A stretch of 64,000 nucleotides of DNA from a virus (IMGVR_UViG_3300029841_000003); one strand, 5' to 3'; numbered from the stretch's first letter, positions 7,884 to 63,376 are shown. Program-made: numbers and translations. Notes: generated by a model from the letters alone, not told the origin.

Positions 7884-8150
7884 GTGTTAGAGAGACTTTA
7901 TGAATGTTTTGGAACTGAGGAGAGAATTGGATTAATTTGTCACATAAATGGCATGGAAATGGGGTGGATGAACTTTGTAATTGAAAATATATATGAAGAG
8001 GGAGATGTTGTAAGAGTAGAAACCGGAGATTCTTACATAAGACTGGAGCCGAAGCTTTATGAAGAGGTTCCAGTTGGAGAAGGGGAAAAATTTGTTCATG
8101 GTAAAGATTATGTTATATTGTATAAAATGGAGGAAGAAGAGTGCTTTTAA
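7884..8150 (+). CDS. hypothetical small protein
   Basis: 88-aa ORF overlapping the ligA start by 10 nt. Confidence 0.3.
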   Translation: MLERLYECFGTEERIGLICHINGMEMGWMNFVIENIYEEGDVVRVETGDSYIRLEPKLYEEVPVGEGEKFVHGKDYVILYKMEEEECF

Positions 8151-10186
8151 AAGAAATGCGTGAATTAGTGGAAGAATTAAATATATATGCTCATGCGTAT
8201 TATATGGAAGATACTTCTCTAATTTCTGATTATGAATATGATAAAAAATATGATCGACTTAAAGAACTTGAGAAAGTTACAGGTATTATTTTAGCCAACA
8301 GTCCCACTATCAATGTTGGCTCAGAAACAGTTAGTGAGTTAGAAAAAGTCGAACATGATCATCCAATGTTGTCCTTAGACAAAACAAAGGATATAAATGA
8401 AGTTGAAAGTTTTATGAATGGTTTGCCAGGATTAGCCATGCTAAAAATGGATGGGCTTACTATTTCAGTAAAATATATAGATGGTAAATTGGTTGCTGCA
8501 GAAACTAGAGGGAATGGAATCATCGGAGAGAATGTTTTACATACAGCAAACAGTTTTGTAAATCTTCCAAAGGAAATTCCTTATAAAGATGAAGTAGTAG
8601 TTGATGGAGAAGCTGTCATGGAAATCCATCATTATACTTATCTTAAAGAGCTAAAAGATATTGATCTGAAAAAAGATGGAGAAAGAAAGGGACTTTTTGG
8701 TGAAGAATTAGAAAAATATATTAAAGATAATGGTATTAAGAATATCAGAAATTTAACTGCTGGCTCTGTTAGACAGCTTGATAACTCCGTTACAAAAGAA
8801 AGAAAAATCAAGTTCATTGCTTGGAAGGCCGTTCGTGGAATAGATGGAAATAGTTTCATGAAAAGATTACAGATATTAGATCTGTTAGGATTTGAAGTGG
8901 TCCCTTGGGTAAAAGTTGATAATATTGAAGAGAATATTAAAGAACTTAGAAAAACCGCAAGAGAAAAAGATGTTCCTATTGATGGAATCGTATTTTCATA
9001 TGATGATATTGATTATAGTGAAAGCTTAGGAAACACATCACATCATGTTCGATCACAATTGGCATATAAATTTGCAGATGATAAGTTTGAAACAGTAATT
9101 AGAGATGTGGAATGGAGCATGGGAAAGACTGGACAGTTGACACCTGTGGCAGTTTTTGATCCGGTTGAAATAGATGATACTATTGTTGAAAGAGCTAGCT
9201 TACATAATGTGAGTATTTTCAAAAGTTATGAACTGTCAGTAGGAGATACGATTACGGTATATAAGGCAAACATGATCATTCCGCAGATCGCAGAGAATTT
9301 GACCAGAAACGGTGACAAATTGTTTACTGTGCCTGACAAGTGCCCTATTTGTGGTGGTCATGTAAAAATTACAGGTGAAAATGAGACAGAAGAGCTTCAG
9401 TGCATGAACCTTGAATGTAAAGGGAAACTTCTTGGTGAATTATGTACTTTTGTAAGCAAAGAAGCACATGATATTACAGGGCTTTCTAAATCTACTCTGA
9501 GTCTATTAATAGAGAAAGAATTTATTAAAGGGCCTTTAGACTTATTTTATCTAAAAGACTGCCGGGGAATGTTAGTGACATTACAAGGGCTAGGAGCAAA
9601 AAAGGTTGATAAAATCCTGGAATCAATAGAAAAATGCCGCAAGACAACTCTGCCTAAATTCCTTTATGGGCTGTCCATACCTTTAATCGGTCGAAGTGTT
9701 AGTAAGCAGCTAAACATTGTTGAAGAGAAGAGAGCAAGAGAAAAAGGGTTAAAAACAGCTTTTGATAGCTTTATTAAAGATATGGATTCTCAGTATGATT
9801 TTACATGTTTGGAAGACTTTGGTTTTGCGAAAGCTTCTTCTTTGAAAAATTATTTTGAAGAAAATCAAAGATACATAACTGAGCTTGCTGCGGAATTCCA
9901 GTTTGAAGAAATTTCTCAGGAGACGGTAAAAGATGTTTTGAATGGGGCAATATTCTGTATTACTGGGACACTCACCGAGTTTGCCAATAGAGCAGCTCTA
10001 GTAGAGAAAATAGAGTCTCTTGGAGGTAAAGTCACAGGATCAGTAACTAAAAAAACTAACTACCTTATTAATAATGATACATTGTCAAAGAGTAGCAAGA
10101 ATGTGAAAGCTATGCAGCTTGGTATCCCGATAATTTCAGAAAAAGAATTTTTAAACAAGTTTGTAAAAAAAGTGTTGACAAGGTAG
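8141..10186 (+). CDS. ligA: NAD+-dependent DNA ligase LigA
   Basis: 681 aa. N-terminal Ia domain (YAHAYYMEDTSLISDYEYD), KxDG adenylation motif (LAMLKMDGLTISVKY), Zn-finger Cys cluster (CPICGGH...C...C) and a C-terminal BRCT-like region (IFCITGTL). Confidence 0.9.
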   Translation: MLLKEMRELVEELNIYAHAYYMEDTSLISDYEYDKKYDRLKELEKVTGIILANSPTINVGSETVSELEKVEHDHPMLSLDKTKDINEVESFMNGLPGLAMLKMDGLTISVKYIDGKLVAAETRGNGIIGENVLHTANSFVNLPKEIPYKDEVVVDGEAVMEIHHYTYLKELKDIDLKKDGERKGLFGEELEKYIKDNGIKNIRNLTAGSVRQLDNSVTKERKIKFIAWKAVRGIDGNSFMKRLQILDLLGFEVVPWVKVDNIEENIKELRKTAREKDVPIDGIVFSYDDIDYSESLGNTSHHVRSQLAYKFADDKFETVIRDVEWSMGKTGQLTPVAVFDPVEIDDTIVERASLHNVSIFKSYELSVGDTITVYKANMIIPQIAENLTRNGDKLFTVPDKCPICGGHVKITGENETEELQCMNLECKGKLLGELCTFVSKEAHDITGLSKSTLSLLIEKEFIKGPLDLFYLKDCRGMLVTLQGLGAKKVDKILESIEKCRKTTLPKFLYGLSIPLIGRSVSKQLNIVEEKRAREKGLKTAFDSFIKDMDSQYDFTCLEDFGFAKASSLKNYFEENQRYITELAAEFQFEEISQETVKDVLNGAIFCITGTLTEFANRAALVEKIESLGGKVTGSVTKKTNYLINNDTLSKSSKNVKAMQLGIPIISEKEFLNKFVKKVLTR

Positions 10187-13038: not shown

Positions 13039-13111
13039 AGGGTAGTGGCCAAGCGGTAAGGCACAGCACTTTGACTGCTGCATTCATGGGTTCGAATCCC
13101 ATCTACCCCGT
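13039..13111 (+). tRNA. tRNA-Gln (anticodon TTG)
   Basis: Cloverleaf by eye: D-arm GCC-AAGCGGTAA-GGC, anticodon stem CAGCA/TGCTG, loop CTTTGAC, T-arm ATGGG-TTCGAAT-CCCAT and acceptor AGGGTAG/CTACCCC. The 1:72 pair is an A:C mismatch. No CCA is encoded. Confidence 0.6.
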
Positions 13112-13478
13112 AGTTCTAAGTTAGCTCTGAAGGCCAAAGAGGTAACCAATAGAACTAAGGTATACCTACTTATGTTCATGGCGAACATAGATAAAACTTA
13201 AGTGAAATTTTGGATGGTTTAATAACTGGAACCTGTTCAAAAAAGGGAACACAGTACATTGGTAGCAATGGTTTGAATGTACAAAACATTTATATAGATG
13301 TGCTTTGTGCTAATGAGTAATTAGTATAAGGCGAAAAAAGTAATTGAGTCAGTGAGGTAGAGGTGAGTGATGGGGCAACGGAATGGTGACGACTGTTCGT
13401 GTAGCTGACATGATTACAAATCAATCATTATAGTTGTTACGTTTTTATATGTGGGTGTTTTCAAAGTTCACCCACTAT

Positions 13479-13552
13479 GGAAACTTAGCTCAGTTGGTTA
13501 GAGCAACCGGCTCATAACCGGTCGGTCCTGGGTTCGAGTCCCAGAGTTTCCA
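13479..13552 (+). tRNA. tRNA with CAT anticodon (elongator Met, or Ile2 if lysidinylated)
   Basis: Acceptor GGAAACT/AGTTTCC, D-arm GCTC-AGTTGGTTAG-AGC, anticodon stem ACCGG/CCGGT, loop CTCATAA and T-arm CCTGG-GTTCGAG-TCCCAG. G1-C72 argues against an initiator tRNA. Confidence 0.75.
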
Positions 13553-13783
13553 CTTCTCCTGACGAAGGAGTGACTTTTGAGAGCTCTAATTTTCAATAGT
13601 AAAGAGCCGTTGCTGATTTGGTAGTGAGAATCAGATGGCGCTGGAAAGACAGATAGTTTTTGAGATGTTTTGTAAAGTAATAAATGTCCCAGCTTTAGAG
13701 AAAATGTAGGGAATTGAGCTGATCAAAGAACACATAATCCTGTTGTGACTGCAGCACGACAGGTCATGCATGAAAATTTAGTA

Positions 13784-13856
<73 letters not shown>

Positions 13857-14099
13857 ATTTGTGATCCTGAGATGGTAACAAAATTGGTTTAAAATCCAAT
13901 TGTCCCCAAAATATATAAAAACGTGAATAGTAGTAAAGCGATTGTACTGCGAAAGCAACTGATTCATCAGTTATGAGGGATGATCTTATCAGAAATGAAT
14001 GATAAGAAGTTCATAAGAGAACTGACAGTAAAGTAGCGTTTACTGTTGAACAAAAGAAAATAGTAACTATTAAAGTTTAAAATTCAGGAGGTATTTATT

Positions 14100-14738
14100 A
14101 TGACAACAGAAAAAATGAATGTACATAAAGCATTAGCGGAACTGAAGATCTTAGATGATCGCATCGTAAAAGCAATCAACAGTGTAGAAGCTTGTATTTC
14201 AAATAAGCATTCTAACACAAAAGTCAAAGGTGTAGATATCAAAGTTTACACAGGGGTTATGAAATCTTCTTATGATAAAGCAACTGATTTAATCAAGAGA
14301 AGAGAAGCTATTAAAAGAGCTGTAGTTCTTTCAAATGCAGTAACTAAAGTCACTGTTGCTGATAAAGAGTATACAGTAGCTGAAGCTATTGAAATGAAAA
14401 ATCATGGAATGGACTTCAAGAAACTTTTAAAACAGAAAATCAAAAAACAGTATGATGCTGCTATGGCTCAGATCATAACTGAGAATGGTAAATTGGAAGA
14501 TAAAGCTGAAAATTATGTTGTAGGGCTCTATGGCAGTAAAGAAGGTAAAACCTCTACTGAAGAGTTTACAAAAACTAGAGAAGCTTATATAGAAGCTCAG
14601 ACAATGGAACTTGTTGATCCAATTGGTGTTCTTAAAGAAATGGAGGATTTAGAAACAGAGATTGCAGAATTTACTGCTGAAGTAGATGCGGCACTTTCAG
14701 TAAGTAATTCTCTGACAGAAATAGAAATTACATACTAA
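14100..14738 (+). CDS. hypothetical protein with predicted coiled coil
   Basis: 212-aa ORF with a strong RBS AGGAGGT, followed by a hairpin TATATGTCT...AGACATATA. Confidence 0.4.
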   Translation: MTTEKMNVHKALAELKILDDRIVKAINSVEACISNKHSNTKVKGVDIKVYTGVMKSSYDKATDLIKRREAIKRAVVLSNAVTKVTVADKEYTVAEAIEMKNHGMDFKKLLKQKIKKQYDAAMAQIITENGKLEDKAENYVVGLYGSKEGKTSTEEFTKTREAYIEAQTMELVDPIGVLKEMEDLETEIAEFTAEVDAALSVSNSLTEIEITY

Positions 14739-14929
14739 GATATATTCACTGCTTATCGAAAACTTTAAACTATAATCTATATGTCTTTTTAGCTGGGTTA
14801 GACATATATAAAACAATAAAGAAACCACAGCATTACTTATACAGTAGATAATAGTATAAACTACAAAATGGATTAGGATTACGTGGTCGTATAGGACCTG
14901 TAAGCTTAATATATTATATTATTGGATGA

Positions 14930-15060
14930 GGCAGATAGCCATAGTACTGTAAAGTTCAAAGATTAAAACTCAAATCTTAAAATTCAAAATTCAAAGTTTA
15001 TCCCAGTTTAAAGATTAAAGAATAAAGCATAAAGAATAAAGATTTATCAAATCCTTGGTA
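14930..15060. repeat. A-rich short direct repeats (AAAGATTAAA x2, AATTCAAA x2, ATAAAG x3)
   Basis: The repeats are visible in the intergenic sequence between 14739 and 15180. Their function is unknown; they could be iterons or regulatory. Confidence 0.3.
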
Positions 15061-15180
15061 AAAGTTTATGAGCATGATTATACTTGGCTCTTAGTTTGTA
15101 CAAGGCTGGTAAGTAGTGAATAAGTAAATATAATAGTCGCTTTCATTATTAACAATTGGCAGTTCAACTGCCAGTTGTAC

Positions 15181-15262
15181 CCACCCATGGTGGAATTGGC
15201 AGACACGTTAGATTTAGGTTCTAATGCTTAATAGCGTGAGAGTTCGAGTCTCTCTGGGTGGA
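15181..15262 (+). tRNA. tRNA-Leu (anticodon TAG), class II with long variable arm
   Basis: Acceptor CCACCCA/TGGGTGG, anticodon stem TTAGA/TCTAA, loop TTTAGGT, a 13-nt variable arm and T-arm GAGAG-TTCGAGT-CTCTC. A palindrome GGCAGTTcAACTGCC sits just upstream. Confidence 0.7.
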
Positions 15263-15861: not shown

Positions 15862-16437
15862 TTGGAGGTAATGCTTGTGGGAAATAAAAAGAAAGTTCTG
15901 ATTGTAGTTGATGTGCAGAATGATTTTGTAACTGGCTCACTAGGTACGCCGGAAGCTCAAGCTATTGTACCTAAAATTAAAGAAAAGTTTGAAGAATATA
16001 AAAATAATGGGGATTATGTAGTGTATACAATGGATACACATAATTCAGATTATTTGAATACTTCTGAGGGTAAAAAACTTCCTGTTGAACATTGTATATA
16101 TCGAACTTCAGGGTGGGAGGTTATAGATGAAATTCATCCTGTAAAAAATAATTATAACAATTTTATGGTATGTAAAAAGTCAACTTTTGGTTATGAAGGC
16201 TGGGATTGGGAAGAAATATTTGGGACAGACAGTGATATAGACAATTTAAACATTGAAATCATAGGTGTGTGTACAGACATCTGCGTTATCACAAATGCTC
16301 TTCTTATCAAAACTTATTATCCGGAGGCAGAGATCACAGTAGATGCGTCATGTTGCGCTGGAACTACACCGGAGAAGCATAAAGCAGCTTTAGAGGTGAT
16401 GAAAAGTTGTCAGATTAATGTGATAGGAGAGAAATAA
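15862..16437 (+). CDS. pncA: nicotinamidase / isochorismatase-family hydrolase (PncA-like)
   Basis: The N-terminus VLIVVDVQNDFVTGSLG carries the isochorismatase-family Asp. The conserved catalytic Cys context IIGVCTDICV is present. Confidence 0.7.
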   Translation: MEVMLVGNKKKVLIVVDVQNDFVTGSLGTPEAQAIVPKIKEKFEEYKNNGDYVVYTMDTHNSDYLNTSEGKKLPVEHCIYRTSGWEVIDEIHPVKNNYNNFMVCKKSTFGYEGWDWEEIFGTDSDIDNLNIEIIGVCTDICVITNALLIKTYYPEAEITVDASCCAGTTPEKHKAALEVMKSCQINVIGEK

Positions 16438-16438
16438 G

Positions 16439-16900
16439 ATGGTAGGAGAAAATACTGTGGAAATGAAGAAATTAGAAGAAATTACATTAGAGGATATTCA
16501 GAACTACTTACGTAAATATGACTGTGATGGAGTGATCACTACAAAACTTGTTGAAAAAAACAATACAGAAACCTTACAAGTATTTGAGTTTGATGGGCTT
16601 TATGACGATACTATTTGGGTGTGCTCAATTTATAAAAATGAGGATAATGATTTTTATATAAAAACAGCTGACGCAACCTCACCGTTTAATCATGCAGATG
16701 GCGTTGAATACGATGATAAAGAAAATGAACTGTTTAAGATTAGTACAATTGTCGCAGAATTATTAAGTTATGTAAAAGTTTCACTATGTGATTCTATTGA
16801 TTATCTCCAAAGACAGGTGGATTTTATCAATAATTTCTGTAATGGCAATCATTTGAATAATCCGTCTGTAATAACTACCTGTGATATTGAGCATAAGTAA
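16439..16900 (+). CDS. hypothetical protein
   Basis: 153-aa ORF. Confidence 0.3.
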   Translation: MVGENTVEMKKLEEITLEDIQNYLRKYDCDGVITTKLVEKNNTETLQVFEFDGLYDDTIWVCSIYKNEDNDFYIKTADATSPFNHADGVEYDDKENELFKISTIVAELLSYVKVSLCDSIDYLQRQVDFINNFCNGNHLNNPSVITTCDIEHK

Positions 16901-16953
16901 AAGTTAAGTAAGGATTATTAAACAGTAAGAAATAAATTATAAGGAGATTTGGA

Positions 16954-17757
16954 ATGATTAAATTAAACGGTGTAGAAATCAAACTTGATAAATATCCGGA
17001 TGGAACATTCTTATTTAAGGATATTCCTCCTATTGGAGGATGGTGCAGAGATAATATTGAATGGTTCTTTGAATCAATGGAAGAGTTAACAGCAGTTGAA
17101 TATATTACTAGATATTGTTGGGACCATAGAGTAGTGCCTAATTTATATATGCCTTATATCCCAGATGCACGTATGGACCGAGTTAAGCATGAGAACGAAT
17201 TATTTACTTTAAAATATTTTGCTCAGACTATTAATTCATTACATTTTGGAAAAGTAGAAGTTTTAGATCCACATTCTGATGTATCTGCTGCATTATTTAA
17301 TAAAGTACATGTAGGATCCCCGAATCGAATGATTGAGGATACTGTCAAGAAGATTGCTAGTGATAATCTTATGATGTTTTATCCGGATGCAGGATCTATG
17401 AAAAGATATTCTTCAGCAGTACATCTTCCATATGCTTTCGGTATTAAGAATAGAGATTGGGAGACCGGAGAAATTAAAGGTTTAGATTTATCAGGTGAAA
17501 TTGATCAATTACCAGGTAAAGACATTCTTATTGTAGATGACATTTGCAGCAGAGGTGGTACTTTTTATTATAGTGCTAAAAAGCTGAAAGAGGCCGGTGT
17601 AGGTAAGATTTATCTTTATATTACTCATTGTGAGAATACTATTTATGAAGGAGAACTTCTGAAAAACAATGGACTGATAGAGAAGATTTATACGACAGAT
17701 ACGATTTTGACAAATCTGGAAAGTCCTAAGATTGAATTGGTTGAGAGATTTAGATGA
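16954..17757 (+). CDS. prs: ribose-phosphate pyrophosphokinase (PRPP synthetase)
   Basis: Shows Prs hallmarks: YPDGTF (FsDGE-like), MPYIPDARMDR (PYfgYaRqDr), VEVLDPHS (DlHa), FYPDAGSMKR and the PRPP-binding loop DILIVDDICSRGGTF. Confidence 0.85.
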   Translation: MIKLNGVEIKLDKYPDGTFLFKDIPPIGGWCRDNIEWFFESMEELTAVEYITRYCWDHRVVPNLYMPYIPDARMDRVKHENELFTLKYFAQTINSLHFGKVEVLDPHSDVSAALFNKVHVGSPNRMIEDTVKKIASDNLMMFYPDAGSMKRYSSAVHLPYAFGIKNRDWETGEIKGLDLSGEIDQLPGKDILIVDDICSRGGTFYYSAKKLKEAGVGKIYLYITHCENTIYEGELLKNNGLIEKIYTTDTILTNLESPKIELVERFR

Positions 17758-17809
17758 ATCAGTCCTGTACACACGCAGCATTCTTGCAGAAAAGAGGTAA
17801 GAGAAGAAA

Positions 17810-18097
17810 ATGAGTAAATCAGTATTAGTGATTGATACGCCAGAGAAATGTATACGTTGTCCGCTATTAAACGATGCAGATGAATGCACAGTACAAGATG
17901 CTAATGCAAATTTCAATGCTGGTGATTCGTGGGATGAGTTAATGAAAGGATGTCCTTTGAATCCATTGCCGGATAAAATGAAATTAACAGGAGTGTACGG
18001 AAGAGAGTATTTTCAAAGCAATGGAAAAATGCCTAGCTACAAGATTGGTTGGAATGATTGTTTGAGAGAAATTACAGGAGAAGATAATAATGAGTAA
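17810..18097 (+). CDS. small CxxC zinc-ribbon-like protein (paralog of the next gene)
   Basis: MSKSVLVIDTPEKCIRCPLL is similar to the N-terminus of 18090-18458 (MSKVMLSIEEPNSCDECPF). Confidence 0.35.
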   Translation: MSKSVLVIDTPEKCIRCPLLNDADECTVQDANANFNAGDSWDELMKGCPLNPLPDKMKLTGVYGREYFQSNGKMPSYKIGWNDCLREITGEDNNE

Positions 18098-18458
18098 AGT
18101 TATGTTATCTATAGAAGAACCTAATTCATGTGACGAATGCCCATTTTCAGAATTAGAAACGTATGGATATTATTGCCAATTATTAAATAAATACATTAAT
18201 TCCTTAAAAAGGAAAGAACATTCAACGATTCCTAAATTATGTCCATTAAGAGAATTACCAGATTACCGTACAGAAACATACAAATGGGAAGATAGACTTC
18301 TAAGCTTACAAGACGTGATTGAATCAATGGCTTATGAAATTGCTACATATAGACACTCTAATAGATATTCTCATATAGAAGATGTGGATGATATTTTAAG
18401 AGAATATGAAGTTGATAAAATTATAAAGGAGATGAGAAAGTATGGAACCAATTATTAG
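18090..18458 (+). CDS. small CxxC zinc-ribbon-like protein (paralog)
   Basis: Shares its N-terminal motif with the previous ORF. Confidence 0.35.
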   Translation: MSKVMLSIEEPNSCDECPFSELETYGYYCQLLNKYINSLKRKEHSTIPKLCPLRELPDYRTETYKWEDRLLSLQDVIESMAYEIATYRHSNRYSHIEDVDDILREYEVDKIIKEMRKYGTNY

Positions 18459-18783
18459 TCCTTGGTTGATTTATTTTGCAAGTAGAGCAGATGCAGTGGG
18501 GACTTTATTTCTGATTGTTGCAGTAGCTGCATTTGCAATATGTTTGATAGGATTTGATGATTTAACAAAGAATGGATTCAAGTTATTTATTTCAATTGGG
18601 ATTATTTCTGTAATTTTAACAGTTCTTACACCAACTACCGAAACCGTTTATACAATGATGGTTGCAAATGAACTAACATCGGACAATGTTCAAGCAATTG
18701 GGAAAACCGGCAAGGATGTTATTGATTACATTACTGATCAGATTGATAAAGTTGTAAACGACAAAGAGGAGAATAAAAAATAA
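18442..18783 (+). CDS. small membrane protein (2 predicted TM helices)
   Basis: Hydrophobic stretches LFLIVAVAAFAICLIGF and LFISIGIISVILTVL. Confidence 0.35.
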   Translation: MEPIISPWLIYFASRADAVGTLFLIVAVAAFAICLIGFDDLTKNGFKLFISIGIISVILTVLTPTTETVYTMMVANELTSDNVQAIGKTGKDVIDYITDQIDKVVNDKEENKK

Positions 18784-20255
18784 TGAATACAATGGCAATT
18801 TTACTCTCAGACACATATAAACAGATACATAATAAAATCTATCCAAAAGGACTGACGAAATTAGTATCTTACTGGACCCCACGAAGATCAATGCTTAAGA
18901 ATCAGAACAAAATGGTATTCTTTGGTCTACAGGCATTTATTGAAGAGTATCTGGTCGATTATTTTAATAAAAACTTTTTTGAATTAACAGCAGCAGAAGT
19001 TGAGCATACATATAAATACAGTATGGATATACAGTTAGGAAATAGTTATGACCTAAAGCCTATTATGAAACTTCATAAATTAGGTTATCTTCCAATTCAG
19101 ATACGTGCTATCCCGGAGGGAACATTAGTACCAATGGGCATCCCATGCATCGAAATTACAAACACACATCCAGATTTTGCTTGGGTAGTACAGTGGATCG
19201 AATGTATCCTGCAGGTTGAACTCTGGAAACCATGTGCTCATGCAACAATTGGTCATATGTATAGAGAACTTGCAAATGACTACTATAAAATGACCTGTGA
19301 TGACTTTTTAAGACCTGAAATGGCATGCTCAGATTTTGGTATGAGAGGAATGTCTTGTATGGAAGAGGCAGTAAGATGTTCATCTGCTTGGTTATTATCA
19401 TTTGATAAGACAAGCACAATTCCAGCCATTGATTATATAGATACGTATTATGATGCTTGCTGCTGGACTGAAAAGATTGGAATTGGGGCTGTATCAACAG
19501 AGCATAGCTGCATGGCTTCAAACTTTGCAGTAGACGGTGATGAAATCACATTTGTAAAAAGACTACTTACAGAACTATATCCTAATGCATCTTTTAGTAT
19601 GGTATCTGATACATATGATTACTGGAACATGATTGATAATATCCTTCCGGCTTGTAAAAAAGAAATCATGCAGCATAATGGTAAACTTCTGGTTCGCCCA
19701 GATTCCGGAGATATGGTAGAAATTGCTGTAGAGACAATTGAAAAGCTTTGGAATACATTTGGCGGAACAGTAAATAACAAGGGATATAAAGTGCTTGACC
19801 CGCACATTGGAATTATCTATGGGGACGGATGTACTCTCAACAATGTAGAACAGGTATGGGAAGAACTTAAAGAAAAAGGATTTGCTGCAAACAATATTGT
19901 ATTCGGAGTCGGAGCATTTTGCTTCTCAGCAGTTATAGAACCCGATGGACATATAGTTGTTGTAACTAGGGATATGTTTGGTATTGCTATGAAAGCTACA
20001 TATGGAATTGTTAATGGCGAGCCAATTATGATTTATAAAGATCCAAAAACCGACACGAGTCATTTGAAAAAGTCTCATAAAGGGTGTTGTTGTATATATC
20101 ACGATGACAATGGAGAGTTGCAATGCATGGATGGATTTAATGATGTATTTCGTGACGGAGTATTAAGAACTGTATTTAAAGACGGTGAAATGTATCATAA
20201 AGAAACATTTGAAGACATTAGAGAAAGACTAAACGGAAGAAACAAAGATGAGTAA
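18783..20255 (+). CDS. nadV: nicotinamide phosphoribosyltransferase (NAMPT/NadV)
   Basis: 490 aa, aligned by eye along the full length of NAMPT: ILLSDTYK, AIPEGTLVP, DFGMRGMSCMEEA, VSDTYDYWN, LVRPDSGD, GYKVLDPHIGIIYGDG and VFGVGAF. Confidence 0.85.
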   Translation: MNTMAILLSDTYKQIHNKIYPKGLTKLVSYWTPRRSMLKNQNKMVFFGLQAFIEEYLVDYFNKNFFELTAAEVEHTYKYSMDIQLGNSYDLKPIMKLHKLGYLPIQIRAIPEGTLVPMGIPCIEITNTHPDFAWVVQWIECILQVELWKPCAHATIGHMYRELANDYYKMTCDDFLRPEMACSDFGMRGMSCMEEAVRCSSAWLLSFDKTSTIPAIDYIDTYYDACCWTEKIGIGAVSTEHSCMASNFAVDGDEITFVKRLLTELYPNASFSMVSDTYDYWNMIDNILPACKKEIMQHNGKLLVRPDSGDMVEIAVETIEKLWNTFGGTVNNKGYKVLDPHIGIIYGDGCTLNNVEQVWEELKEKGFAANNIVFGVGAFCFSAVIEPDGHIVVVTRDMFGIAMKATYGIVNGEPIMIYKDPKTDTSHLKKSHKGCCCIYHDDNGELQCMDGFNDVFRDGVLRTVFKDGEMYHKETFEDIRERLNGRNKDE

Positions 20256-20721
20256 AATTACAGATTATTTATTAAAAGATGATGTGATTGTAGTAATGGA
20301 TGTAGATGGAGTACTTGCTCCGTATGAGTTTTCTGAATTAAGTCATAGTATGACTGACGATGAATGGGACAGACTTGTAGCTTCCGGTGAGAATCCGTAT
20401 AAAGATGTGCGTCCGATCAAATTAATACAGGAGTTTATTCAGAAGAAAGGCGTGAATAAAGTATATACCTGTTCAAAGAGTCCTTTAAATGAAATTCCTG
20501 GTAAAAGAGCTTTTATAAAAGACAATTATGATCTGCCAGATGATAATATCTATTTCACTTTAGAAAAGACAGAAAAACTTACTGTGCTTCAAACGCTGCA
20601 ACAAAAGCTCGGACTTAAGCCATCTCAGATTGCAATTGTAGAAGATACAGTTAAAACTTTGGATTATATTCGTGCACATAGCGATTTTGTAACTGTACAT
20701 GTTTCATCATTTATGGAGTAG
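20248..20721 (+). CDS. HAD-superfamily hydrolase (phosphatase/nucleotidase-like)
   Basis: HAD motif I VVMDVDGVLA near the N-terminus. Confidence 0.45.
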   Translation: MSKITDYLLKDDVIVVMDVDGVLAPYEFSELSHSMTDDEWDRLVASGENPYKDVRPIKLIQEFIQKKGVNKVYTCSKSPLNEIPGKRAFIKDNYDLPDDNIYFTLEKTEKLTVLQTLQQKLGLKPSQIAIVEDTVKTLDYIRAHSDFVTVHVSSFME

Positions 20722-21142
20722 ATATAGGGAGGTATTAAAAATGAGTTATTTTACTGATTCAGTTTCAGATCTTTGTCAGGGGATTATTGATAAAGTAGAT
20801 ACTTATGAAAAACGAATCAAATACTTAGAAGAAGAAAACAAAAAGTTCAAAGATGAGCATTATAAAGACTCTGAAATGCAGAGAATGAAAACAGAGTTGG
20901 AAAAAGCAAAAGATGATTTACATAGAGGATTTCCAATTTCTAAAGAAGAAGAGGAGAAAATCAAAGAGTGGCAGTTAAAACATGACGCTGAGAAACATGG
21001 TTTGAAAACTATGGAACAGAGATTGAGAGCTGGCGGATGTTGTGGCGGGAGATATACATATCAATTTGTTCCCACAAGCATTGGAACTATTGGAGAAGTG
21101 ATTTGCTCCTGTGGCGAGAAGTTTACATTTCAGGATTTATAG
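20699..21142 (+). CDS. hypothetical coiled-coil protein with C-terminal Cys cluster
   Basis: 147-aa ORF with C-terminal GGCCGG...CSCGEKF. Confidence 0.3.
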   Translation: MFHHLWSRYREVLKMSYFTDSVSDLCQGIIDKVDTYEKRIKYLEEENKKFKDEHYKDSEMQRMKTELEKAKDDLHRGFPISKEEEEKIKEWQLKHDAEKHGLKTMEQRLRAGGCCGGRYTYQFVPTSIGTIGEVICSCGEKFTFQDL

Positions 21143-21152
21143 GAAAAGATTT

Positions 21153-21653
21153 ATGATTAAAATTATTGAAGGTAACATTGTAGATGCACAGACCGATTAT
21201 ATAATTCATCAAGTTAATTGCCAAGGAGAAATGAATACTGGAGTCGCTAAAGCATTAAGAGATTATGACGAAGGTATTTATATACATTATAGAAACGTCT
21301 GTAAATTACGTGAGTTTAATCCAGAATTACTTCTTGGAACATATGACGAGTACTTTATCAGAAGGAAAAATCAAGAGATATTGTCCTTATTTGCACAAGA
21401 CAAGTATGGATATGATGGAAAACAGTATACTGATGTTAAAGCTTTTCGAGAAGGATTAAATTTTATTCGACAACAAATACCTGTTTATTGGTTTGATGCT
21501 GATAACAGACCTCACAAGACAACCATTGCACTCCCATATAAAATAGGCTGCGGAAGAGGAGGAGCAGACTGGGAAGTGGTTTATAAGATTATAGAAGAAG
21601 AATTAAGTAGTTTTGAAGTAGAATTGTGGAAATTGGAGGAGCAGAATGTTTAA
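21153..21653 (+). CDS. macro-domain-like protein (ADP-ribose binding/processing)
   Basis: The N-terminus MIKIIEGNIVDAQTDYIIHQVNCQGEMNTGVAKALRD parallels the macro-domain pattern (GDIT...DAIVNAAN..GGGGVDGAIHRAAG). The start was chosen at the internal ATG, because the track start at 21111 overlaps the previous gene. Confidence 0.45.
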   Translation: MIKIIEGNIVDAQTDYIIHQVNCQGEMNTGVAKALRDYDEGIYIHYRNVCKLREFNPELLLGTYDEYFIRRKNQEILSLFAQDKYGYDGKQYTDVKAFREGLNFIRQQIPVYWFDADNRPHKTTIALPYKIGCGRGGADWEVVYKIIEEELSSFEVELWKLEEQNV

Positions 21654-22791
21654 TGTAGAAAAAGCAACAAATGATTGTATTCAGTGGATTAGAGATTGGA
21701 GAGAAGAGAATGGTCCTGGATGTAATCTCATAGTAGGTATTTCCGGTGGCGTTGACTCTTTAGTAGCTGCTAAGCTATGTGTGGAAGCCGTTGGAGCTGA
21801 CAAAGTTCTCGGAGTAATCATGCCGAACTATAAACAGGATGATATTGATGTGGCTTATGATATTTGCCAGCATGTATTAAACATTGATTATCTTACTATT
21901 AATATTGGATCAGCTTATGATGATATTATTGATCAAATTGATGCTGCATTTAATGTAACAGATCAGACATTAATTAATCTCGCTCCTAGACTAAGAATGA
22001 CCACTCTATACGGGGTGTCACAGTCACACAATGGAAGAGTGGTTAATACATGTAATCTTTCTGAGGATTACATCGGATACTCCACTAGATATGGTGACGC
22101 AGCAGGGGACTTTTCACCGTTGGCTCAGTTCACAAAGAGTGAAGTAAAAAGAATCGGTTATTATTTAGGACTACCTAAAAAATATATAGAGAAAACACCA
22201 TCAGATGGGTTATGCGGTAAATCAGATGAAGATAGCTTCGGATTTACCTATGCAGTATTAGATAGATATATTCGTACAGGTATTTGCGATGATCCGGAAA
22301 TTAAAAGACGGATTGATCGTTTACATACAAAAAATAAGTTTAAACTGAAACCAATGCAGTATTTTAATTATAAAGAGGAGAAAACAGATATGAATATGTC
22401 ACCAGATGAGATTTTAAAAGCACTTGAAAAAGCAGTAGCGAAAAAAGAAAAAGAGCATACTATTGGAGAAGAGCTTAGAAGCTGTGAGCGTCAGATTAAA
22501 GATGCTTTAGGCATTGATGTATATATTGTACCTAAAAATAAAACTGATAAACAGGTTTGTAAAACACTTTCGAAAGATGATATCACATTTGTAGGAAGAA
22601 CAAAAGATATTGCTACAGGAAAAATTAGAACTACTGTAGGGTTCAAAGATGGAACACAGACTTCTGTAGTCTTAAATGATTGGGAAGACGAAGATGATAC
22701 TGAAAAAGCCATTATGTGGTGTTTGCTTAAGAAGTGTTTCAAATCAAAAAGAAGCTTAGAAAAAGTAATTTATTCAATGGAGGACATGTAA
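21646..22791 (+). CDS. nadE: NH3-dependent NAD+ synthetase (NadE) with ~130-aa C-terminal extension
   Basis: PP-loop SGGxDS (GISGGVDSLVAAKLC) plus NadE-type downstream blocks (RMTTLYGV, GDFSPLA). Residues ~250-381 form an extra domain of unknown function. Confidence 0.8.
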   Translation: MFNVEKATNDCIQWIRDWREENGPGCNLIVGISGGVDSLVAAKLCVEAVGADKVLGVIMPNYKQDDIDVAYDICQHVLNIDYLTINIGSAYDDIIDQIDAAFNVTDQTLINLAPRLRMTTLYGVSQSHNGRVVNTCNLSEDYIGYSTRYGDAAGDFSPLAQFTKSEVKRIGYYLGLPKKYIEKTPSDGLCGKSDEDSFGFTYAVLDRYIRTGICDDPEIKRRIDRLHTKNKFKLKPMQYFNYKEEKTDMNMSPDEILKALEKAVAKKEKEHTIGEELRSCERQIKDALGIDVYIVPKNKTDKQVCKTLSKDDITFVGRTKDIATGKIRTTVGFKDGTQTSVVLNDWEDEDDTEKAIMWCLLKKCFKSKRSLEKVIYSMEDM

Positions 22792-22993: not shown

Positions 22994-23389
22994 ATGAAAA
23001 TACGGAAAGGATTTGTTACTAATTCAAGCTCTAGCAGTTTCATTATTTGCTTTGCAAGGATTGCTGACAAAGAAAAAGCTCAGAAGATAATTGATCAGTT
23101 CAATCTTGATGTATTAGATGTTACTGGTGTAAATGATGAAAAAAACTGGTCTGGTGAGCTTGGTGCTAGTTGGTGCGGAGCGGTCATTTATGGGGTTGAT
23201 GACATTTTAGAAAAGCACCCTGATGGAGAATATATCGTAATTGAGGACAGGAACGATGCTTATTATGATGAATGGGGTGATGCTGTATATGATTATGATT
23301 TCTCTATGAATGAAGCAATAGATGCTATTACGGAAGTAAATGGATTTGCTGATATAGAAGTTGCTGAAGGAGAAGGGAGAGATGGTTAA
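22994..23389 (+). CDS. hypothetical protein, GFVTNSSSSS-motif family (paralog 1)
   Basis: Its N-terminus MKIRKGFVTNSSSSSFII is nearly identical to that of the next gene. RBS GAAAGGAGGG. Confidence 0.45.
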   Translation: MKIRKGFVTNSSSSSFIICFARIADKEKAQKIIDQFNLDVLDVTGVNDEKNWSGELGASWCGAVIYGVDDILEKHPDGEYIVIEDRNDAYYDEWGDAVYDYDFSMNEAIDAITEVNGFADIEVAEGEGRDG

Positions 23390-23772
23390 TGAAAATAAGA
23401 AGAGGATTTGTTACTAATAGTTCGTCTTCAAGTTATATCATTGCAAAAAAGAAAGATGCAACATTAGCAGACATTAAAAATTCACTGTTGAAAGTAAGAG
23501 ACAACGCTAAATCTTTTTTGATTGAACAGCATAAATGGATTGATCTTGAGCCGGATGTAGAAGAGTCAATAAGAAAAGAAGATTATGATAAGGCTGTGGA
23601 TGCGTTTTTAGAACACACAGCAGATTATTTATACGGTAACTTTAATGATGGAACATTAGGTGATTGGGAAGTTGGATCAGATGAATTCTGGAGTGAAAAC
23701 GGGGATCCATATGAAAATTTTATTTTAGATTCTGCATGGCTTATTGGTGATGAAAACTTACAGATTATCTGA
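23389..23772 (+). CDS. hypothetical protein, GFVTNSSSSS-motif family (paralog 2)
   Basis: N-terminus MKIRRGFVTNSSSSSYII. It is a tandem duplicate of the previous gene. Confidence 0.45.
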   Translation: MKIRRGFVTNSSSSSYIIAKKKDATLADIKNSLLKVRDNAKSFLIEQHKWIDLEPDVEESIRKEDYDKAVDAFLEHTADYLYGNFNDGTLGDWEVGSDEFWSENGDPYENFILDSAWLIGDENLQII

Positions 23773-23781
23773 GGAGTAAAC

Positions 23782-24300
23782 ATGAAAATAAAAGCAAAGC
23801 AAATAATTGTAGATGGGAGCACATCTTATAAATATTATAAACCTAAATTCTGTTGCAAAGCATTGGAAGAGAATCCTAGGATAGTTATTTCTAATGAATA
23901 TCCTGATAACTACTTATGTAGAACTTGTGAAACTATAGAATGCCATGGTTGTGACTATAAAACTGATGAAACTTTTGGAATTTTCTTTTACATAAGCGAA
24001 GAAGTCCAAGACTGGGAAGATACATGGCCTGAAGACTATTATTACCCTCTTAAATTCTGTCCATTTTGCGGAGAACCAATTGAAGTTGATGTCATAGAAA
24101 CCATTGATAAAACAGAAGAAGCAGAAAAGGTATCTGAGGTTGCAACGAAGCTACGAAAACAGTTATGGACATGTGATAGCAAGAAAAAGTGTGCAGAGTT
24201 AGAAAAAGAGATAAGGAACTTAGACGATATAGTAAATTATTATTATTCAACAGGAGAAATTGATGAAAATAGAGAAAATCAAAAAATTGTTGAAAAGTGA
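23782..24300 (+). CDS. Cys-rich zinc-finger-like protein
   Basis: 172 aa with CC..C, CRTCETIECHGC and CPFCGEP motifs. Confidence 0.35.
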   Translation: MKIKAKQIIVDGSTSYKYYKPKFCCKALEENPRIVISNEYPDNYLCRTCETIECHGCDYKTDETFGIFFYISEEVQDWEDTWPEDYYYPLKFCPFCGEPIEVDVIETIDKTEEAEKVSEVATKLRKQLWTCDSKKKCAELEKEIRNLDDIVNYYYSTGEIDENRENQKIVEK

Positions 24301-25294
24301 ACACTATGATTTCTTAAGAGCGAACGAGCACCTGGGGAGTAACATAATTCTATTAGGCTTAGGTGGGTCTCATGCTTATGGTACAGATACAGAAAACTCC
24401 GATCTGGATATTAGGGGTTGTGCTTTAAATAAAAGAGAAGAAATCCTGATTCCTACACATAATTTTGATCAGGTAACGGAAGAAACAACAGATACAACAA
24501 TCTATTCTTTTAATAAATTGATAACTCTATTGTCAAACTGCAACCCAAACACAATTGAGCTGATAGGATTGAAGCCAGAACATTATCTTTATATTCATCC
24601 AATTGGTCAAGAACTTCTTGATAATGCTGAAATGTTTTTATCTAAGAAAGCGATCTATTCTTTTGGAGGCTATGCTACAAGCCAGCTAAGAAGGCTCGAT
24701 AATAAATCTGCCAGGAAATTGGGACAAGAAGAAAGAATGCAGCATGTTCTTAATAGTATTATGAATGCTTTTTATACTTTCCCTGAAAAGTATTTCAATT
24801 TTCCAGAAGATGCAATAAAGCTTTATGTAGATAAAGGTATTCAGGAAGATTATGAAACAGAAGTATTTATGGATATCCAGTTGAAGCATTACCCTTTGAA
24901 TGATTATCAGGGGATGTGGGCCGAAATGAAAAACATTGTTAGGGATTATTCCAAAATTGGGAAGAGAAATAAGCATGCCATAGAACATAATAAGTTAGGA
25001 AAGCATATGTGCCATTTAGTGAGATTGTATCTTATGTGTTTTGATATTCTTGAAAAAGGCAAAATTATTACATATAGAGAAGATGATCATGAGCTTCTTA
25101 TGGCTCTACGTAATGGAGAATATTTGGATGCAAACAGTCAGCCTATCCCAGAATTTTTTGAAATGGTAAACGAGTTAGAGAAAAGACTTGAGTATGATTC
25201 AAAGAATACCTCATTGCCTGATAAACCAAATTATAAAGCTATAGAAGAATTTGTAATGTCTGTCAATGAAAGAATTGTATTAGGAGAGATTTAA
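24260..25294 (+). CDS. Pol-beta-superfamily nucleotidyltransferase (minimal NTase fold, PF10127-like)
   Basis: NTase signature GLGGSHAYGTDTENSDLDIRG (GS...D.D). 344 aa. The substrate is unknown. Confidence 0.5.
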   Translation: MMKIEKIKKLLKSEHYDFLRANEHLGSNIILLGLGGSHAYGTDTENSDLDIRGCALNKREEILIPTHNFDQVTEETTDTTIYSFNKLITLLSNCNPNTIELIGLKPEHYLYIHPIGQELLDNAEMFLSKKAIYSFGGYATSQLRRLDNKSARKLGQEERMQHVLNSIMNAFYTFPEKYFNFPEDAIKLYVDKGIQEDYETEVFMDIQLKHYPLNDYQGMWAEMKNIVRDYSKIGKRNKHAIEHNKLGKHMCHLVRLYLMCFDILEKGKIITYREDDHELLMALRNGEYLDANSQPIPEFFEMVNELEKRLEYDSKNTSLPDKPNYKAIEEFVMSVNERIVLGEI

Positions 25295-25296: not shown

Positions 25297-27918
25297 ATGA
25301 ATTTTAATGGATTAAAAAGTAGCGAAGTAGAGGTTAGTAGGACTACATATGGAAGTAATAAGCTTCCGGAACCTGAATTGAAAAAATGGTATCATTTTGC
25401 TAAGGAAGCATTAACTGAACCAATTACTATGATTCTAATAATAATTGCTTTGTTTCAGTTGGTTTTAGGCGCTATGGGAGTAATGTCTCTTTCTGAACCT
25501 GTAATGATTATAGTGGTTTTAGCTATTGTTACTGGAATTGCTATTAAGACAGGTCTAGGCGTACAGAAATCTGCAGCAGAGCTAAGAGCAAAAACGGCAG
25601 TTAGATATTGTGATGTTGTCCGAGATGGAAACGTACAGACAATTAATAAAGATGATCTGGTAGTAGGTGATTTAGTTCTATTGAGAACTGGACAAGAGAT
25701 TTTTGCAGATGGATTTATTGTTGATGGAGAAATTTCTGTTAATAACGCCGCTATCAATGGAGAGACAAAAGAATGTAGAAAAATTCCTAGTGCTAATTAT
25801 AAGCATGTTAAAACAACATCAACTACTGCATATACGGATCAGTGTTCTCTCTTTGCAGGAACAGTTATCATGTCTGGTGAAGGAAAAATGATTGTTACAG
25901 ATGTTGGTGTTAATACAGTTAATGGTGATACTCTTGTCAAAATGCAGACTTTAGAGCCTCCTAAGACAGCTCTTGATATTGCTCTGGATCATTTGTGTGA
26001 TTTTATTTCAAAATGGGGAACAATTGCGGCAGCATTAGCATTTGTAATTATGACAATTACAGGTATCTTAAATGCTGGAAGCTTAAGTCAGTATTTCTTA
26101 GGAAGTATTCTTGAAAGTATTCAGAAGGTAGCACAGAATGTCTCAAATGCATTGACAATTATTGTTGCGGCTGTACCGGAAGGTCTGCCACTCATTGTAA
26201 AACTTGTAACTAAACAGAATGTATCGACAATGGAAAAATTCAATATTCTTGCGAAGAATACTGGTAAAATTCCTGAATTGGCGTATGTTAATTTAATTTG
26301 TACGGATAAGACAGGAACTCTCACAACAGGTGAAATGACCTCTACAGTTATGATTAACGGTAACTGTCAGGATATTTTTAATAAGGAAAGTTCGCTCAAC
26401 GAGCTAATTGATTTAAACATTTGCATGAACAATAGCGCAGTGTTTGACTCTAATGGAAACATCACTGGTGGTAATTCGATTGATCGAGCAGTGCTTGATA
26501 TGCTTTCTCCTGAAGATGCACAAAAAATACAGAATAAAGCTATCATAAAGAAACGTGTTCCATTTAGTAGTGAAAATAAATTCTCTGCAATTACTTTAAG
26601 TAATGGAGCAAATGATTTTACTGTTTATAAGGGTGCACCAGAAAAACTGATTGAGAAATGCAAAACTTATCTCGATAATGATGGCAATGTAACTGAGCTA
26701 ACAGAAGAAAAACGAAAAGCTTTGAAAAGTCATATTAAGGGATTAACAGAGAAAGCAATGAGGTGTATTGCATTGACTATCTCAGATAAAGCTGATGATG
26801 GTCTCCCTGATGAAATGAATTTCCTTGGAGTCATTGGAGTTGTTGACCCGGTTAGGAATGAAGTTCCAGAAGCAGTAAAAATTGCTCATAAAGCTGGAAT
26901 TCAGGTAATTGAAATTACTGGTGATTGCATGGAGACGGCTAAGGCTGTTGCTATGGAAGCTGGCATTTATAAGCCTGGAGACTTAGCAGTTACTAATGAT
27001 GAGTTTGAGGCAATGTCAGATGTAAAAGTAAAAGAAATTATTCCACAGTTAAGAGTAATTTCCAGATGCTCACCGAATACGAAACTTCGTCTTGTAACAT
27101 TAGCGCAAGAAATTGGAATGTCTGTAGCAATGACAGGTGATGGTGTGAACGATGCTCCTGCATTAAAGAAAGCAGATGTAGGCTTTGGAATGCAAGACGG
27201 ATCTGATGTAGCAAAAGAAGCAGCAGACATTGTTTTGACGGACAATAATTTTGCAAGTGTAGTAAAAGCAGTCGAACTTGGTAGAACATTTATGCATAAC
27301 ATTATGATGTTCCTTGAATTCCAGCTGCCTATCAATATTTCGTTGTTGATCTTAAGTATGGTATTTCCAATTATTTCTGGTGGCTCTGCTCTATTAGCAG
27401 CAGTTCAGATCCTTATTGTAAATATCATCATGGATTCACTTAACTCATTAAGCTTTGGTGGAGAACCGCCAAAAGAAGAATATATGAATGAAGAGCCTAT
27501 CATGAAAGGATCCGGATTATTTATCCGTGGAGCGAAAGGGAGAATTGCATTAAGTTCAATTGTATTTATTGCTTTATTTGGTGTAATTACATTTGGTCCA
27601 GTTGGGAATATGTTTACAACAAAACTTTCGGCTATGACAGCGAGATTCGCTTTATTGTGTTTAATGGCAGTATTTAATGGATTCACTATTAGAACAGATA
27701 GTATGAATCTTTTCAAAGGAATTAAAAATAATAAATTATTTGTGTATATCGCATTAGGTATTTTTGCAATGACTGTAGTTTTGTGTAATTTTGTAGGAAA
27801 TTTAGTACAGACAACTCCAATGGATGTTAAACAGTGGATTGTAGTCTTAGTGACAGCTTTTATGATTGTGCCTGTAGATTGGATTAGGAAAGCAATTTGT
27901 AAGAAAGGAAGTAAATAA
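25297..27918 (+). CDS. P-type cation-transporting ATPase
   Basis: 873 aa with the phosphorylation motif ICTDKTGTLT, a TGD motif (ITGDCMETA), the hinge MTGDGVNDAPALKKADVGFGM and multiple TM segments at both ends. Confidence 0.85.
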   Translation: MNFNGLKSSEVEVSRTTYGSNKLPEPELKKWYHFAKEALTEPITMILIIIALFQLVLGAMGVMSLSEPVMIIVVLAIVTGIAIKTGLGVQKSAAELRAKTAVRYCDVVRDGNVQTINKDDLVVGDLVLLRTGQEIFADGFIVDGEISVNNAAINGETKECRKIPSANYKHVKTTSTTAYTDQCSLFAGTVIMSGEGKMIVTDVGVNTVNGDTLVKMQTLEPPKTALDIALDHLCDFISKWGTIAAALAFVIMTITGILNAGSLSQYFLGSILESIQKVAQNVSNALTIIVAAVPEGLPLIVKLVTKQNVSTMEKFNILAKNTGKIPELAYVNLICTDKTGTLTTGEMTSTVMINGNCQDIFNKESSLNELIDLNICMNNSAVFDSNGNITGGNSIDRAVLDMLSPEDAQKIQNKAIIKKRVPFSSENKFSAITLSNGANDFTVYKGAPEKLIEKCKTYLDNDGNVTELTEEKRKALKSHIKGLTEKAMRCIALTISDKADDGLPDEMNFLGVIGVVDPVRNEVPEAVKIAHKAGIQVIEITGDCMETAKAVAMEAGIYKPGDLAVTNDEFEAMSDVKVKEIIPQLRVISRCSPNTKLRLVTLAQEIGMSVAMTGDGVNDAPALKKADVGFGMQDGSDVAKEAADIVLTDNNFASVVKAVELGRTFMHNIMMFLEFQLPINISLLILSMVFPIISGGSALLAAVQILIVNIIMDSLNSLSFGGEPPKEEYMNEEPIMKGSGLFIRGAKGRIALSSIVFIALFGVITFGPVGNMFTTKLSAMTARFALLCLMAVFNGFTIRTDSMNLFKGIKNNKLFVYIALGIFAMTVVLCNFVGNLVQTTPMDVKQWIVVLVTAFMIVPVDWIRKAICKKGSK

Positions 27919-33343: not shown

Positions 33344-33582
33344 TTAAGCAAACCATGGGATGGATTTCTGCTATATGTGGAGTAATTGGAGCTGTATGTA
33401 GTGGTTGGAAGTTAATGCTTTTGCCAGTAGTAACAATATTAAACATGATTGCAGATAAAAAATTAAACCTGTGTATTTTACTAATTTCAATTATGAAAAT
33501 GTTTTTTGCGATACCCATAGCATATTTCATGATTCTTATAGGATTTTCAATCGCTACATATTGTTGGAGGTGGTGGAAATAA
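33340..33582 (+). CDS. small membrane protein (2 TM)
   Basis: Hydrophobic 80-aa ORF. Confidence 0.3.
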   Translation: MIKQTMGWISAICGVIGAVCSGWKLMLLPVVTILNMIADKKLNLCILLISIMKMFFAIPIAYFMILIGFSIATYCWRWWK

Positions 33583-63361: not shown

Positions 63362-63376
63362 AATTGAATATGGAAC

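Follow-up and report, generated by a model that had tools for sequence, protein, structure and literature searches.

Which route to NAD+ does a phage encode when a nicotinamidase, a protein resembling phosphoribosyl pyrophosphate (PRPP) synthetase, a protein of the nicotinamide phosphoribosyltransferase family and an NAD synthetase lie together in one gene array? The question is raised by positions 15862-22791 of a viral sequence of 64,000 nucleotides (IMGVR_UViG_3300029841_000003), the whole of which is referred to here as the window. NAD+ depletion is among the commonest bacterial anti-phage strategies, and the NAD+ reconstitution pathway NARP1 is the commonest phage answer to it. NARP1 consists of Adps, which turns ADP-ribose (ADPR) into its pyrophosphate (ADPR-PP), and Namat, which joins nicotinamide and ADPR-PP to yield NAD+; NARP2 consists of Nampt and Nmnat (bioRxiv 10.1101/2024.02.11.579819). 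From the family assignments, active-site substitutions and strict gene linkage described below, we infer a switch of substrate in the Namat-family enzyme of the window and a deamido-NAD intermediate, and we consider it moderately probable that these genes form an enlarged operon of the NARP1 type, which restores NAD+ through deamidated intermediates.

The segment is an unbroken array of co-directional open reading frames (ORFs) on the + strand, in which neighbours overlap or lie at most about 50 nt apart. A megablast search of the 7-kb segment against GenBank phages gave no match, and related loci were then sought at the protein level. The same gene set was found again in dozens of them, and the clustering of the NAD genes is therefore not due to chance. 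The four genes on which the argument turns are as follows:

15862-16437, + strand: PncA-type nicotinamidase of the isochorismatase family (PF00857, E=5e-24; best PDB relative 1IM5)
16954-17757, + strand: Adps, ADP-ribose pyrophosphate synthetase, PRPS-like (42% identity to SPbetaL1 Adps; PHROG 619 at 1e-66)
18783-20255, + strand: Namat-family transferase with an altered base pocket (PF04095, E=1e-29, and NAMPT_N; 41% identity to SPbetaL1 Namat)
21646-22791, + strand: NadE, NH3-dependent NAD synthetase (PF02540, E=2e-48, 165 bits)

The first-pass annotation had named the second and third of these genes Prs and NadV. PRPS-like and NAMPT-family genes are indeed present, but a true Prs or NadV identity does not stand, since SPbetaL1 Adps and Namat are by far the better matches. 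The identity of the window protein to SPbetaL1 Adps extends over the full length (E=1e-56), whereas its matches to solved structures of true Prs reach only ~1e-13, and it scores under the Pfam and NCBIfam Prs cut-offs. In ICP1 Adps, residues R87, H121, D161, K185, D212 and D213 serve ADPR binding and transfer catalysis (PMC13586617). These residues, together with D89 and R90 (ICP1 numbering), are invariant in the window Adps and in all related loci, irrespective of whether the neighbouring Namat is of the canonical or of the altered type, and the adps gene adjoins a Namat homologue in every locus examined. We therefore assign the Prs-like protein to Adps and not to the cellular Prs enzymes.

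With SPbetaL1 Namat (PDB 9W5X/9W5W), the putative NadV reaches a score of 394 bits, as opposed to about 203 bits with human NAMPT. It groups with Namat, not with Nampt, and is best regarded as a Namat homologue; its gene lies 1 kb 3' of adps in the same-strand array. As judged from these similarities, the pair corresponds to the core of NARP1, not of NARP2. The earlier expectation of a gene set for NAD+ reconstitution, of a kind directed against NAD+-depleting defences, is thus borne out by the Adps and Namat homologues, while its NARP2-type label has to be replaced, the window having no Nmnat.

No NMN adenylyltransferase (NMNAT; NMN, nicotinamide mononucleotide) or NadD was detected in the 64-kb window, to which the search of this prophage was confined and where tblastn at E<=10 with phage G NadD and Phosso NMNAT returned noise only and no HxGH motif was present. 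Similarly, no PncB-type nicotinate phosphoribosyltransferase (NAPRT) was found in the window or in the related loci with phage G and Phosso queries. The window holds neither the Nampt-clade enzyme and Nmnat that define NARP2 nor the PncB-type NAPRT and NadD of classical Preiss-Handler salvage. Because NARP1 joins the base directly to ADPR-PP, the missing NMNAT is not a gap. Three candidates had been put forward to fill it, namely the ORFs at 16439-16900 and 20699-21142, as adenylyltransferases for NMN or nicotinic acid mononucleotide (NaMN), and the nucleotidyltransferase (NTase) starting at 24260. The tblastn searches and HxGH motif scans of the whole window gave noise only, and the two ORFs have no family match in Pfam, PHROG or NCBIfam. 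The NTase was discarded, being of the RlaP type, outside the conserved core, restricted to some members of the Ser215 clade and missing from most related modules.

The residues that bind nicotinamide in the structures of SPbetaL1 Namat are Phe189, Arg192, Asp215, Ala242, Arg306, Asp13' and Tyr15'; Asp215 hydrogen-bonds the amide of nicotinamide, and the D215A mutation lowers NAD+ synthesis ~8-fold (PMC12774641). In the window Namat, Asp215 corresponds to Ser211, Ala242 to Ser238 and Gly213 to Lys209 (SPbetaL1 numbering first), and the pocket segment reads SFDKTSTIP, as against SFTGTDTIP in SPbetaL1. Taken together, the three substitutions remove a negative charge and add a positive one beside the pyridine ring substituent, while the catalytic core (F189, R192, H245, R306 and D308) is kept. 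The nicotinamide-contacting Asp215 of NARP1 is thus lacking in the window Namat, and Ser or Ala occupies the position throughout its subfamily. The motif SF[DNS]KTSTIP is common to all 120 of the 120 closest database relatives (67-94% identical). In a library of 1.8 billion proteins clustered at 50% identity, the 149 nearest representatives include about 50 with Ser or Ala at 215, mostly from gut Clostridia phages, which makes the subfamily a large one. Additional differences were observed in the adenine clamp. The SCH motif of the window Namat consists of GAFCFS, a 10-aa insertion and VVTRD, with the position-3 Phe kept and Val at position 7 (the Tyr396 site); the SCL residue Arg40 is Met, and the clamp Phe/Tyr392 is kept.

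We take Asp215 of Namat to be the equivalent of Asp219 of human NAMPT, on the basis of the Namat structure paper and of the human sequence; a PDB search with the short pocket segment gave no match to human NAMPT at E<=0.001. In the human enzyme, Asp219 is the accepted determinant of base specificity. In 2006, Khan et al. reportedly found that human NAMPT D219S shifts base preference and that D219A is inactive. The same two mutants are listed, respectively, as switching substrate preference and as inactive in Table 2 of PMC4919578. The natural enzymes resemble these mutants in the position concerned, where Asp to Ser reportedly switches preference and Asp to Ala is inactive with nicotinamide; however, the mutants are engineered forms of a PRPP-using enzyme, whereas Ser or Ala is natural and conserved in a large Adps-linked subfamily.

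Alignment of the window PncA to the nicotinamidase of Pyrococcus horikoshii (1IM5) shows conservation of the catalytic triad, Asp17, Lys and Cys150, and of Asp58, His60 and His77, which bind the metal; against the NCBIfam model of E. coli PncA it falls far under the cut-off. NadE scores 163 bits with TIGR00552 (cut-off, 63.65), has the SGGxDS loop in the form GISGGVDS and lacks a glutaminase domain. It matches the ordinary NH3-dependent NadE 2E18 and the Francisella NMN synthetase 3FIU about equally (both ~1e-33). A C-terminal extension of ~135 aa (22390-22791), with no family match, is found only in 13 close relatives; the NadE proteins of other sublineages are 56% identical and do not have it.

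Gene linkage was surveyed in 131 loci around Namat homologues, taken from GenBank and, by searches with the proteins of the window, SPbetaL1 and Phass-1, from IMG/VR. Only loci flanked on each side by 6 kb or more entered the counts:

Asp215/Ala242 Namat loci, n=20: Adps in 20, NadE in 0, PncA in 0, macro in 1, NMNAT/NadD in 0
Ser/Ala215 Namat loci, n=62: Adps in 62, NadE in 62, PncA in 61, macro in 43, NMNAT/NadD in 0

Residues 213, 215 and 242 are G-D-A in the canonical group and K-S-S, N-A-S or R-A-S in the altered group, about half of the altered clade having Ala215. An unbiased scan of the alignment identified columns 97, 185, 187, 213, 215, 242 and 304 as those that separate the two groups fully, and most of them are located in strands bearing base-pocket residues. 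In a distance tree, the canonical Namat proteins form one clade and the altered proteins two deep clades. Within the altered clades, the linkage still holds at identities as low as 38-50% and in different gene orders, in which PncA comes first or last. Compact four-gene operons are frequent, as in loci L052, L059, L118 and L121 and in the gut phage Phass-1, where the order is PncA-Adps-Namat-x-NadE. The linkage was also observed in genome contigs of Ruminococcus and Lachnospiraceae and in archaeal metagenome-assembled genome (MAG) contigs.

NadE and PncA are uncommon among GenBank phages, with 43 and 16 records, as opposed to 2045 with a Namat/Nampt homologue. They are not exclusive to this module: PncA alone, NadE alone or PncA-PncB pairs occur in GenBank gut phage contigs. 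Consequently, the linkage is one-directional: an altered Namat implies NadE and PncA. In one gut phage contig, MT835572.1 (L146 7001-8965), PncA is immediately followed by a true PncB-type NAPRT, 51% identical to phage G gp277; no NadE, NadD or Adps was found within 5.5-7 kb of this pair, which represents a partial phage Preiss-Handler arrangement.

To our knowledge, NadE has a single established substrate class, the deamidated dinucleotide. Since PncA and NadE are tied specifically to the Namat proteins that have lost the Asp, the data point to one deamidated, ADPR-based route; furthermore, a canonical Namat would lose its substrate to PncA, and this logic favours the same route. The earlier suggestion that the segment would serve both the NMN and the Preiss-Handler routes finds no support in these results, given that PncB-type NAPRT and NadD are missing, that the nicotinamide-specific Asp is absent from Namat and that PncA and NadE go with its altered form.

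The proposed sequence of reactions would begin with a host NADase effector, which cuts NAD+ into ADPR and nicotinamide; effectors of the aRES type would give ADPR-1''-phosphate instead, which the macro protein of the array could convert to ADPR, feeding the pathway. Adps would then pyrophosphorylate ADPR to ADPR-PP, and PncA would deamidate nicotinamide to nicotinate. The altered Namat would join nicotinate and ADPR-PP into deamido-NAD (nicotinic acid adenine dinucleotide), which NadE would finally amidate to NAD+. In more general terms, the balance of our judgement tips slightly towards a large phage Namat subfamily having switched its base from nicotinamide to nicotinate. This would make it a new nicotinate:ADPR-PP transferase within a "deamidated NARP1" of four enzymes (PncA, Adps, the altered Namat and NadE, often joined by Adpp and HAD), a further undescribed pathway against NAD+ depletion.

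Several observations weigh against this proposal. The switch of substrate is proposed on the strength of sequence and of linkage between genes. The window clade has kept only part of the adenine clamp (Arg40Met, the 10-aa insertion in SCH and Val at the Tyr396 site), so that selectivity for ADPR-PP is not assured. Human D219S reportedly broadens rather than abolishes the use of nicotinamide, and a Ser-type Namat could be dual-specific. As Ser/Ala215 is confined to two deep clades, the linkage may reflect one or two evolutionary events, though long maintained. The window NadE scores as well against the Francisella NMN synthetase as against ordinary NadE, and gut phage contigs also carry PncA or NadE by themselves or in different surroundings. 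Finally, a four-step route has no evident selective advantage over a two-step one.

The alternative that survives best, which we nevertheless consider unlikely, builds on NARP1-AP, in which the macro phosphatase Adpp turns aRES-made ADPR-1''-phosphate into ADPR (bioRxiv 10.64898/2026.01.28.702374). Under this alternative, Adps, Adpp and Namat of the window would form an ordinary NARP1-AP working from nicotinamide and ADPR-PP, and PncA and NadE would separately boost host Preiss-Handler salvage through the host PncB and NadD. The common catalytic core of Namat is intact, and Ser at the human D219 site need not abolish the use of nicotinamide; however, Ala215 occurs in about half of the altered clade, and in SPbetaL1 Namat the D215A mutation strongly impairs activity with nicotinamide. 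Position 213 of the pocket has additionally acquired Lys, Arg or Asn, and position 242 Ser. PncA or NadE in isolation and PncA-PncB pairs do occur in phages, but independence of the two functions predicts mixed pairings, whereas NadE accompanies none of the 20 Asp215 proteins and all 62 of the Ser/Ala215 proteins. Besides, PncA would compete with Namat for nicotinamide.

A second alternative, which strikes us as improbable, involves no ADPR chemistry. The altered enzyme would be a PRPP-using NAPRT, with the Prs-like protein supplying PRPP, the host NadD adenylylating NaMN and the phage NadE finishing the route. Namat accepts PRPP in vitro (PMC12774641), and the degraded adenine clamp of the window clade is in line with the use of PRPP, but the clamp Phe/Tyr392 is kept. 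The NCBIfam family name, "nicotinate phosphoribosyltransferase", appears to speak for this alternative, although the same name covers NadV/NAMPT generally. The proposed source of PRPP falls in the Adps group (42%), under all Prs cut-offs, and has every Adps substrate-contact residue that was checked, and 43 of the 62 loci of this type contain the macro protein, a putative phosphatase that handles ADPR. Phages that truly encode a Preiss-Handler route carry a PncB-type NAPRT together with their own NadD, whereas NadD/NMNAT is found in none of the 62. It is highly improbable that NadE is a Francisella-type NMN synthetase converting NaMN to NMN, with a host NMN adenylyltransferase completing NAD+, given that its about equal scores against 3FIU and 2E18 are a similarity at the family level only, that the route requires an NMNAT, which neither the window nor the related loci encode, and that Adps and the macro protein would be left without a role.

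Compared with the NARP1 systems of SPbetaL1, Fado, Bas63 and ICP1 (Osterman et al., bioRxiv 10.1101/2024.02.11.579819; PMC12774641; PMC13586617), the module of the window has an Adps with all catalytic and ADPR-contact residues, a Namat with the catalytic core, both genes in one co-directional cluster and the same expected role against NAD+-depleting defences. It differs in the pocket substitutions Asp215Ser, Ala242Ser and Gly213Lys, in the interrupted SCH, in the loss of SCL Arg40, in the obligatory linkage to PncA and NadE and in the three small ORFs between adps and namat. With NARP1-AP (Adps-Adpp-Namat, Vibrio phage Gary; Osterman et al.), it shares a macro-domain protein encoded in the operon; unlike in NARP1-AP, the macro gene lies 3' of namat, beyond the HAD gene and a hypothetical ORF, and PncA and NadE are added. 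The study of NARP1-AP looked for macro genes within two genes (bioRxiv 10.64898/2026.01.28.702374).

The classical Preiss-Handler routes of Bacillus phage G (gp275-gp283) and Sinorhizobium phage Phosso are likewise framed by PncA and an NH3-dependent NadE and pass through deamidated intermediates. However, the steps between are served in these phages by a PncB-type NAPRT and a phage-encoded NadD/NMNAT, whereas the window has Adps and Namat in that slot and no adenylyltransferase. NARP2 (Nampt and a bifunctional Nmnat, as in Vibrio phage KVP40) also restores phage NAD+ by means of a NAMPT-family enzyme, but it has no Adps and needs Nmnat, while the window has Adps and no Nmnat. The module thus resembles NARP1 and NARP1-AP at its ADPR end and Preiss-Handler salvage at its pyridine end. 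In the literature on NARP1, NARP1-AP, NARP2, NARP3 and RyDEP, within an incomplete search coverage, no paper was found that connects NadE, PncA, nicotinate or deamido-NAD to Namat or NARP1, and the Phass-1 genome paper only annotates the module genes. A form of NARP1 with an altered Namat, PncA and NadE is apparently undescribed.

Reading such genes as "Prs + NadV", and hence as PRPP-based salvage, is likely a common annotation error, which the present assignments correct. If the proposed route is right, phages would have a second chemical solution on the same scaffold, in which nicotinate is joined directly to ADPR-PP; no NAD pathway is known to use such a reaction. The occurrence in gut phages of nicotinamidase and NAD synthetase, which phages otherwise rarely carry, would be explained, and two or three pocket residues (213, 215 and 242) could serve as an easy marker when Namat homologues are annotated. 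The proposed route would also raise the question of why phages of gut anaerobes prefer the deamidated route; trapping of the base as an anion, host PncA activity and evasion of a counter-measure are possibilities.

The remaining ORFs of the array are the following:

16439-16900, + strand: ORF of 153 aa, a lineage-specific insert between PncA and Adps, present in only 7 related loci
17810-18458, + strand: pair of short Cys-rich paralogues of 95 and 122 aa with a common CxxCP...CPL pattern
18442-18783, + strand: small membrane protein of 113 aa, phrog_3878 (PHROG 3878, E=3e-11), with a homologue in 43 related loci
20248-20721, + strand: capless HAD-superfamily phosphatase of 157 aa (AlphaFold2 model, pLDDT 92; Foldseek matches MDP-1, KdsC-type)
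20741-21142, + strand: conserved hypothetical protein with a homologue in 52 related loci (AlphaFold2 model, pLDDT 78)
21153-21653, + strand: macro-domain protein, probable Adpp-like ADPR-1''-phosphate phosphatase (ORF 21111-21653, likely true start ATG 21153; PHROG 335 "phosphatase", 7e-37)

The macro gene is located 3' of namat, with the HAD gene and the conserved hypothetical ORF between. Its product did not reach the Pfam macro families in hmmscan at E<=0.01; it has weak DarG and Appr-1-p matches (DarG-type macro, 5e-13) and is 31% identical (2e-18) to the macro protein that Vibrio phage K408 encodes within an Adps-macro-Namat operon. It probably resembles the Adpp phosphatase of NARP1-AP, and activity on ADPR-1''-phosphate is predicted.

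For the HAD protein, no significant sequence-family match was obtained for ORF 20248-20721, and the assignment was made by fold; its DxD and ED motifs (D18, D20, K110, E132 and D133) are invariant among relatives. In many relatives it is fused to Namat in proteins of 646 aa, and a different HAD is fused in P0029, from another lineage. These fusions suggest a phosphatase partner, for which removal of pyrophosphate or trimming of phosphorylated ADPR species is a guess. In bacteria, the context of this HAD family (P0204) showed no NAD genes nearby. Protein P0025, listed as a PncA-Namat fusion on the basis of precomputed Pfam domains, proved to be a truncated chimera (PncA 1-112 joined to Namat from ~113) and was not used as Rosetta-stone evidence. 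The other families named by the first-pass annotation within the array, that is, PncA, NAMPT-family, macro and NadE, were confirmed by profile searches on the + strand, at or near the positions that it gave, as was the DNA ligase described below.

The conserved hypothetical protein, encoded between the HAD and macro genes, is predicted to form a long coiled coil and a small three-stranded Cys-containing beta domain; the model gave no PDB fold match. The phrog_3878 membrane protein gene usually lies directly upstream of the Namat gene. The 153-aa ORF has no Pfam, PHROG or NCBIfam match. Neither do the Cys-rich ORFs match any family; the pair is present in only 2 other loci, placed between adps and namat, and is a candidate for further anti-defence accessories. 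Their insertion point is where the RyDEP cyclic ADPR (cADPR) glycosidase sits in the NARP1 operon of mycobacteriophage DyoEdafos.

Upstream of the array, and outside the NAD operon, the phage encodes an NAD+ consumer:

8141-10186, + strand: LigA, NAD-dependent DNA ligase (PF01653 and PF03120, adenylation and OB, plus BRCT domains)

Four clustered tRNA genes (Gln, Met, Phe and Leu; 13039-15262) directly precede the NAD module. The source family consists of viral contigs of ~100-180 kb from human gut metagenomes, and relatives of the module were also found in Ruminococcus and Lachnospiraceae genome contigs; the phage is probably a large temperate phage of gut Clostridia. A tyrosine-type integrase is encoded at 60724-61986 on the - strand, with a tRNA-Arg gene beyond it at 62260-62332, and near 60724-64000 the GC content climbs from 0.34 to 0.44 and the GC skew disappears. 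Based on the integrase, the tRNA-Arg and the jump in GC, the end of the window probably crosses from the integrated prophage into host DNA.

In four genome-derived loci of the survey, a Nudix hydrolase gene whose product is 29-34% identical to phage G gp273 lies directly beside the PncA-Adps-Namat-NadE module (L135 10249-11061, L137 2720-3538, L138 3377-4081 and L140 10284-11096); one of these loci is a Methanomassiliicoccaceae (archaeal) MAG contig. The RlaP-type pol-beta NTase of the window (24260-25294), which directly follows the Namat gene in relatives L040, L041, L043 and L046, resembles, together with a metallophosphoesterase (33471-35270) and an RNA ligase (36352-37650), an RNA-repair set, possibly directed against anticodon nucleases. 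Two tandem paralogues of 131 and 127 aa at 22994-23772, with the common N-terminus MKIR(K/R)GFVTNSSSSS(F/Y)II and no family match, are kept 3' of NadE in 13-14 close loci. Finally, a P-type cation-transporting ATPase of 873 aa (25297-27918; E1-E2 ATPase, Cation_ATPase_N/C), an unusual phage cargo, is kept in 17 related loci.

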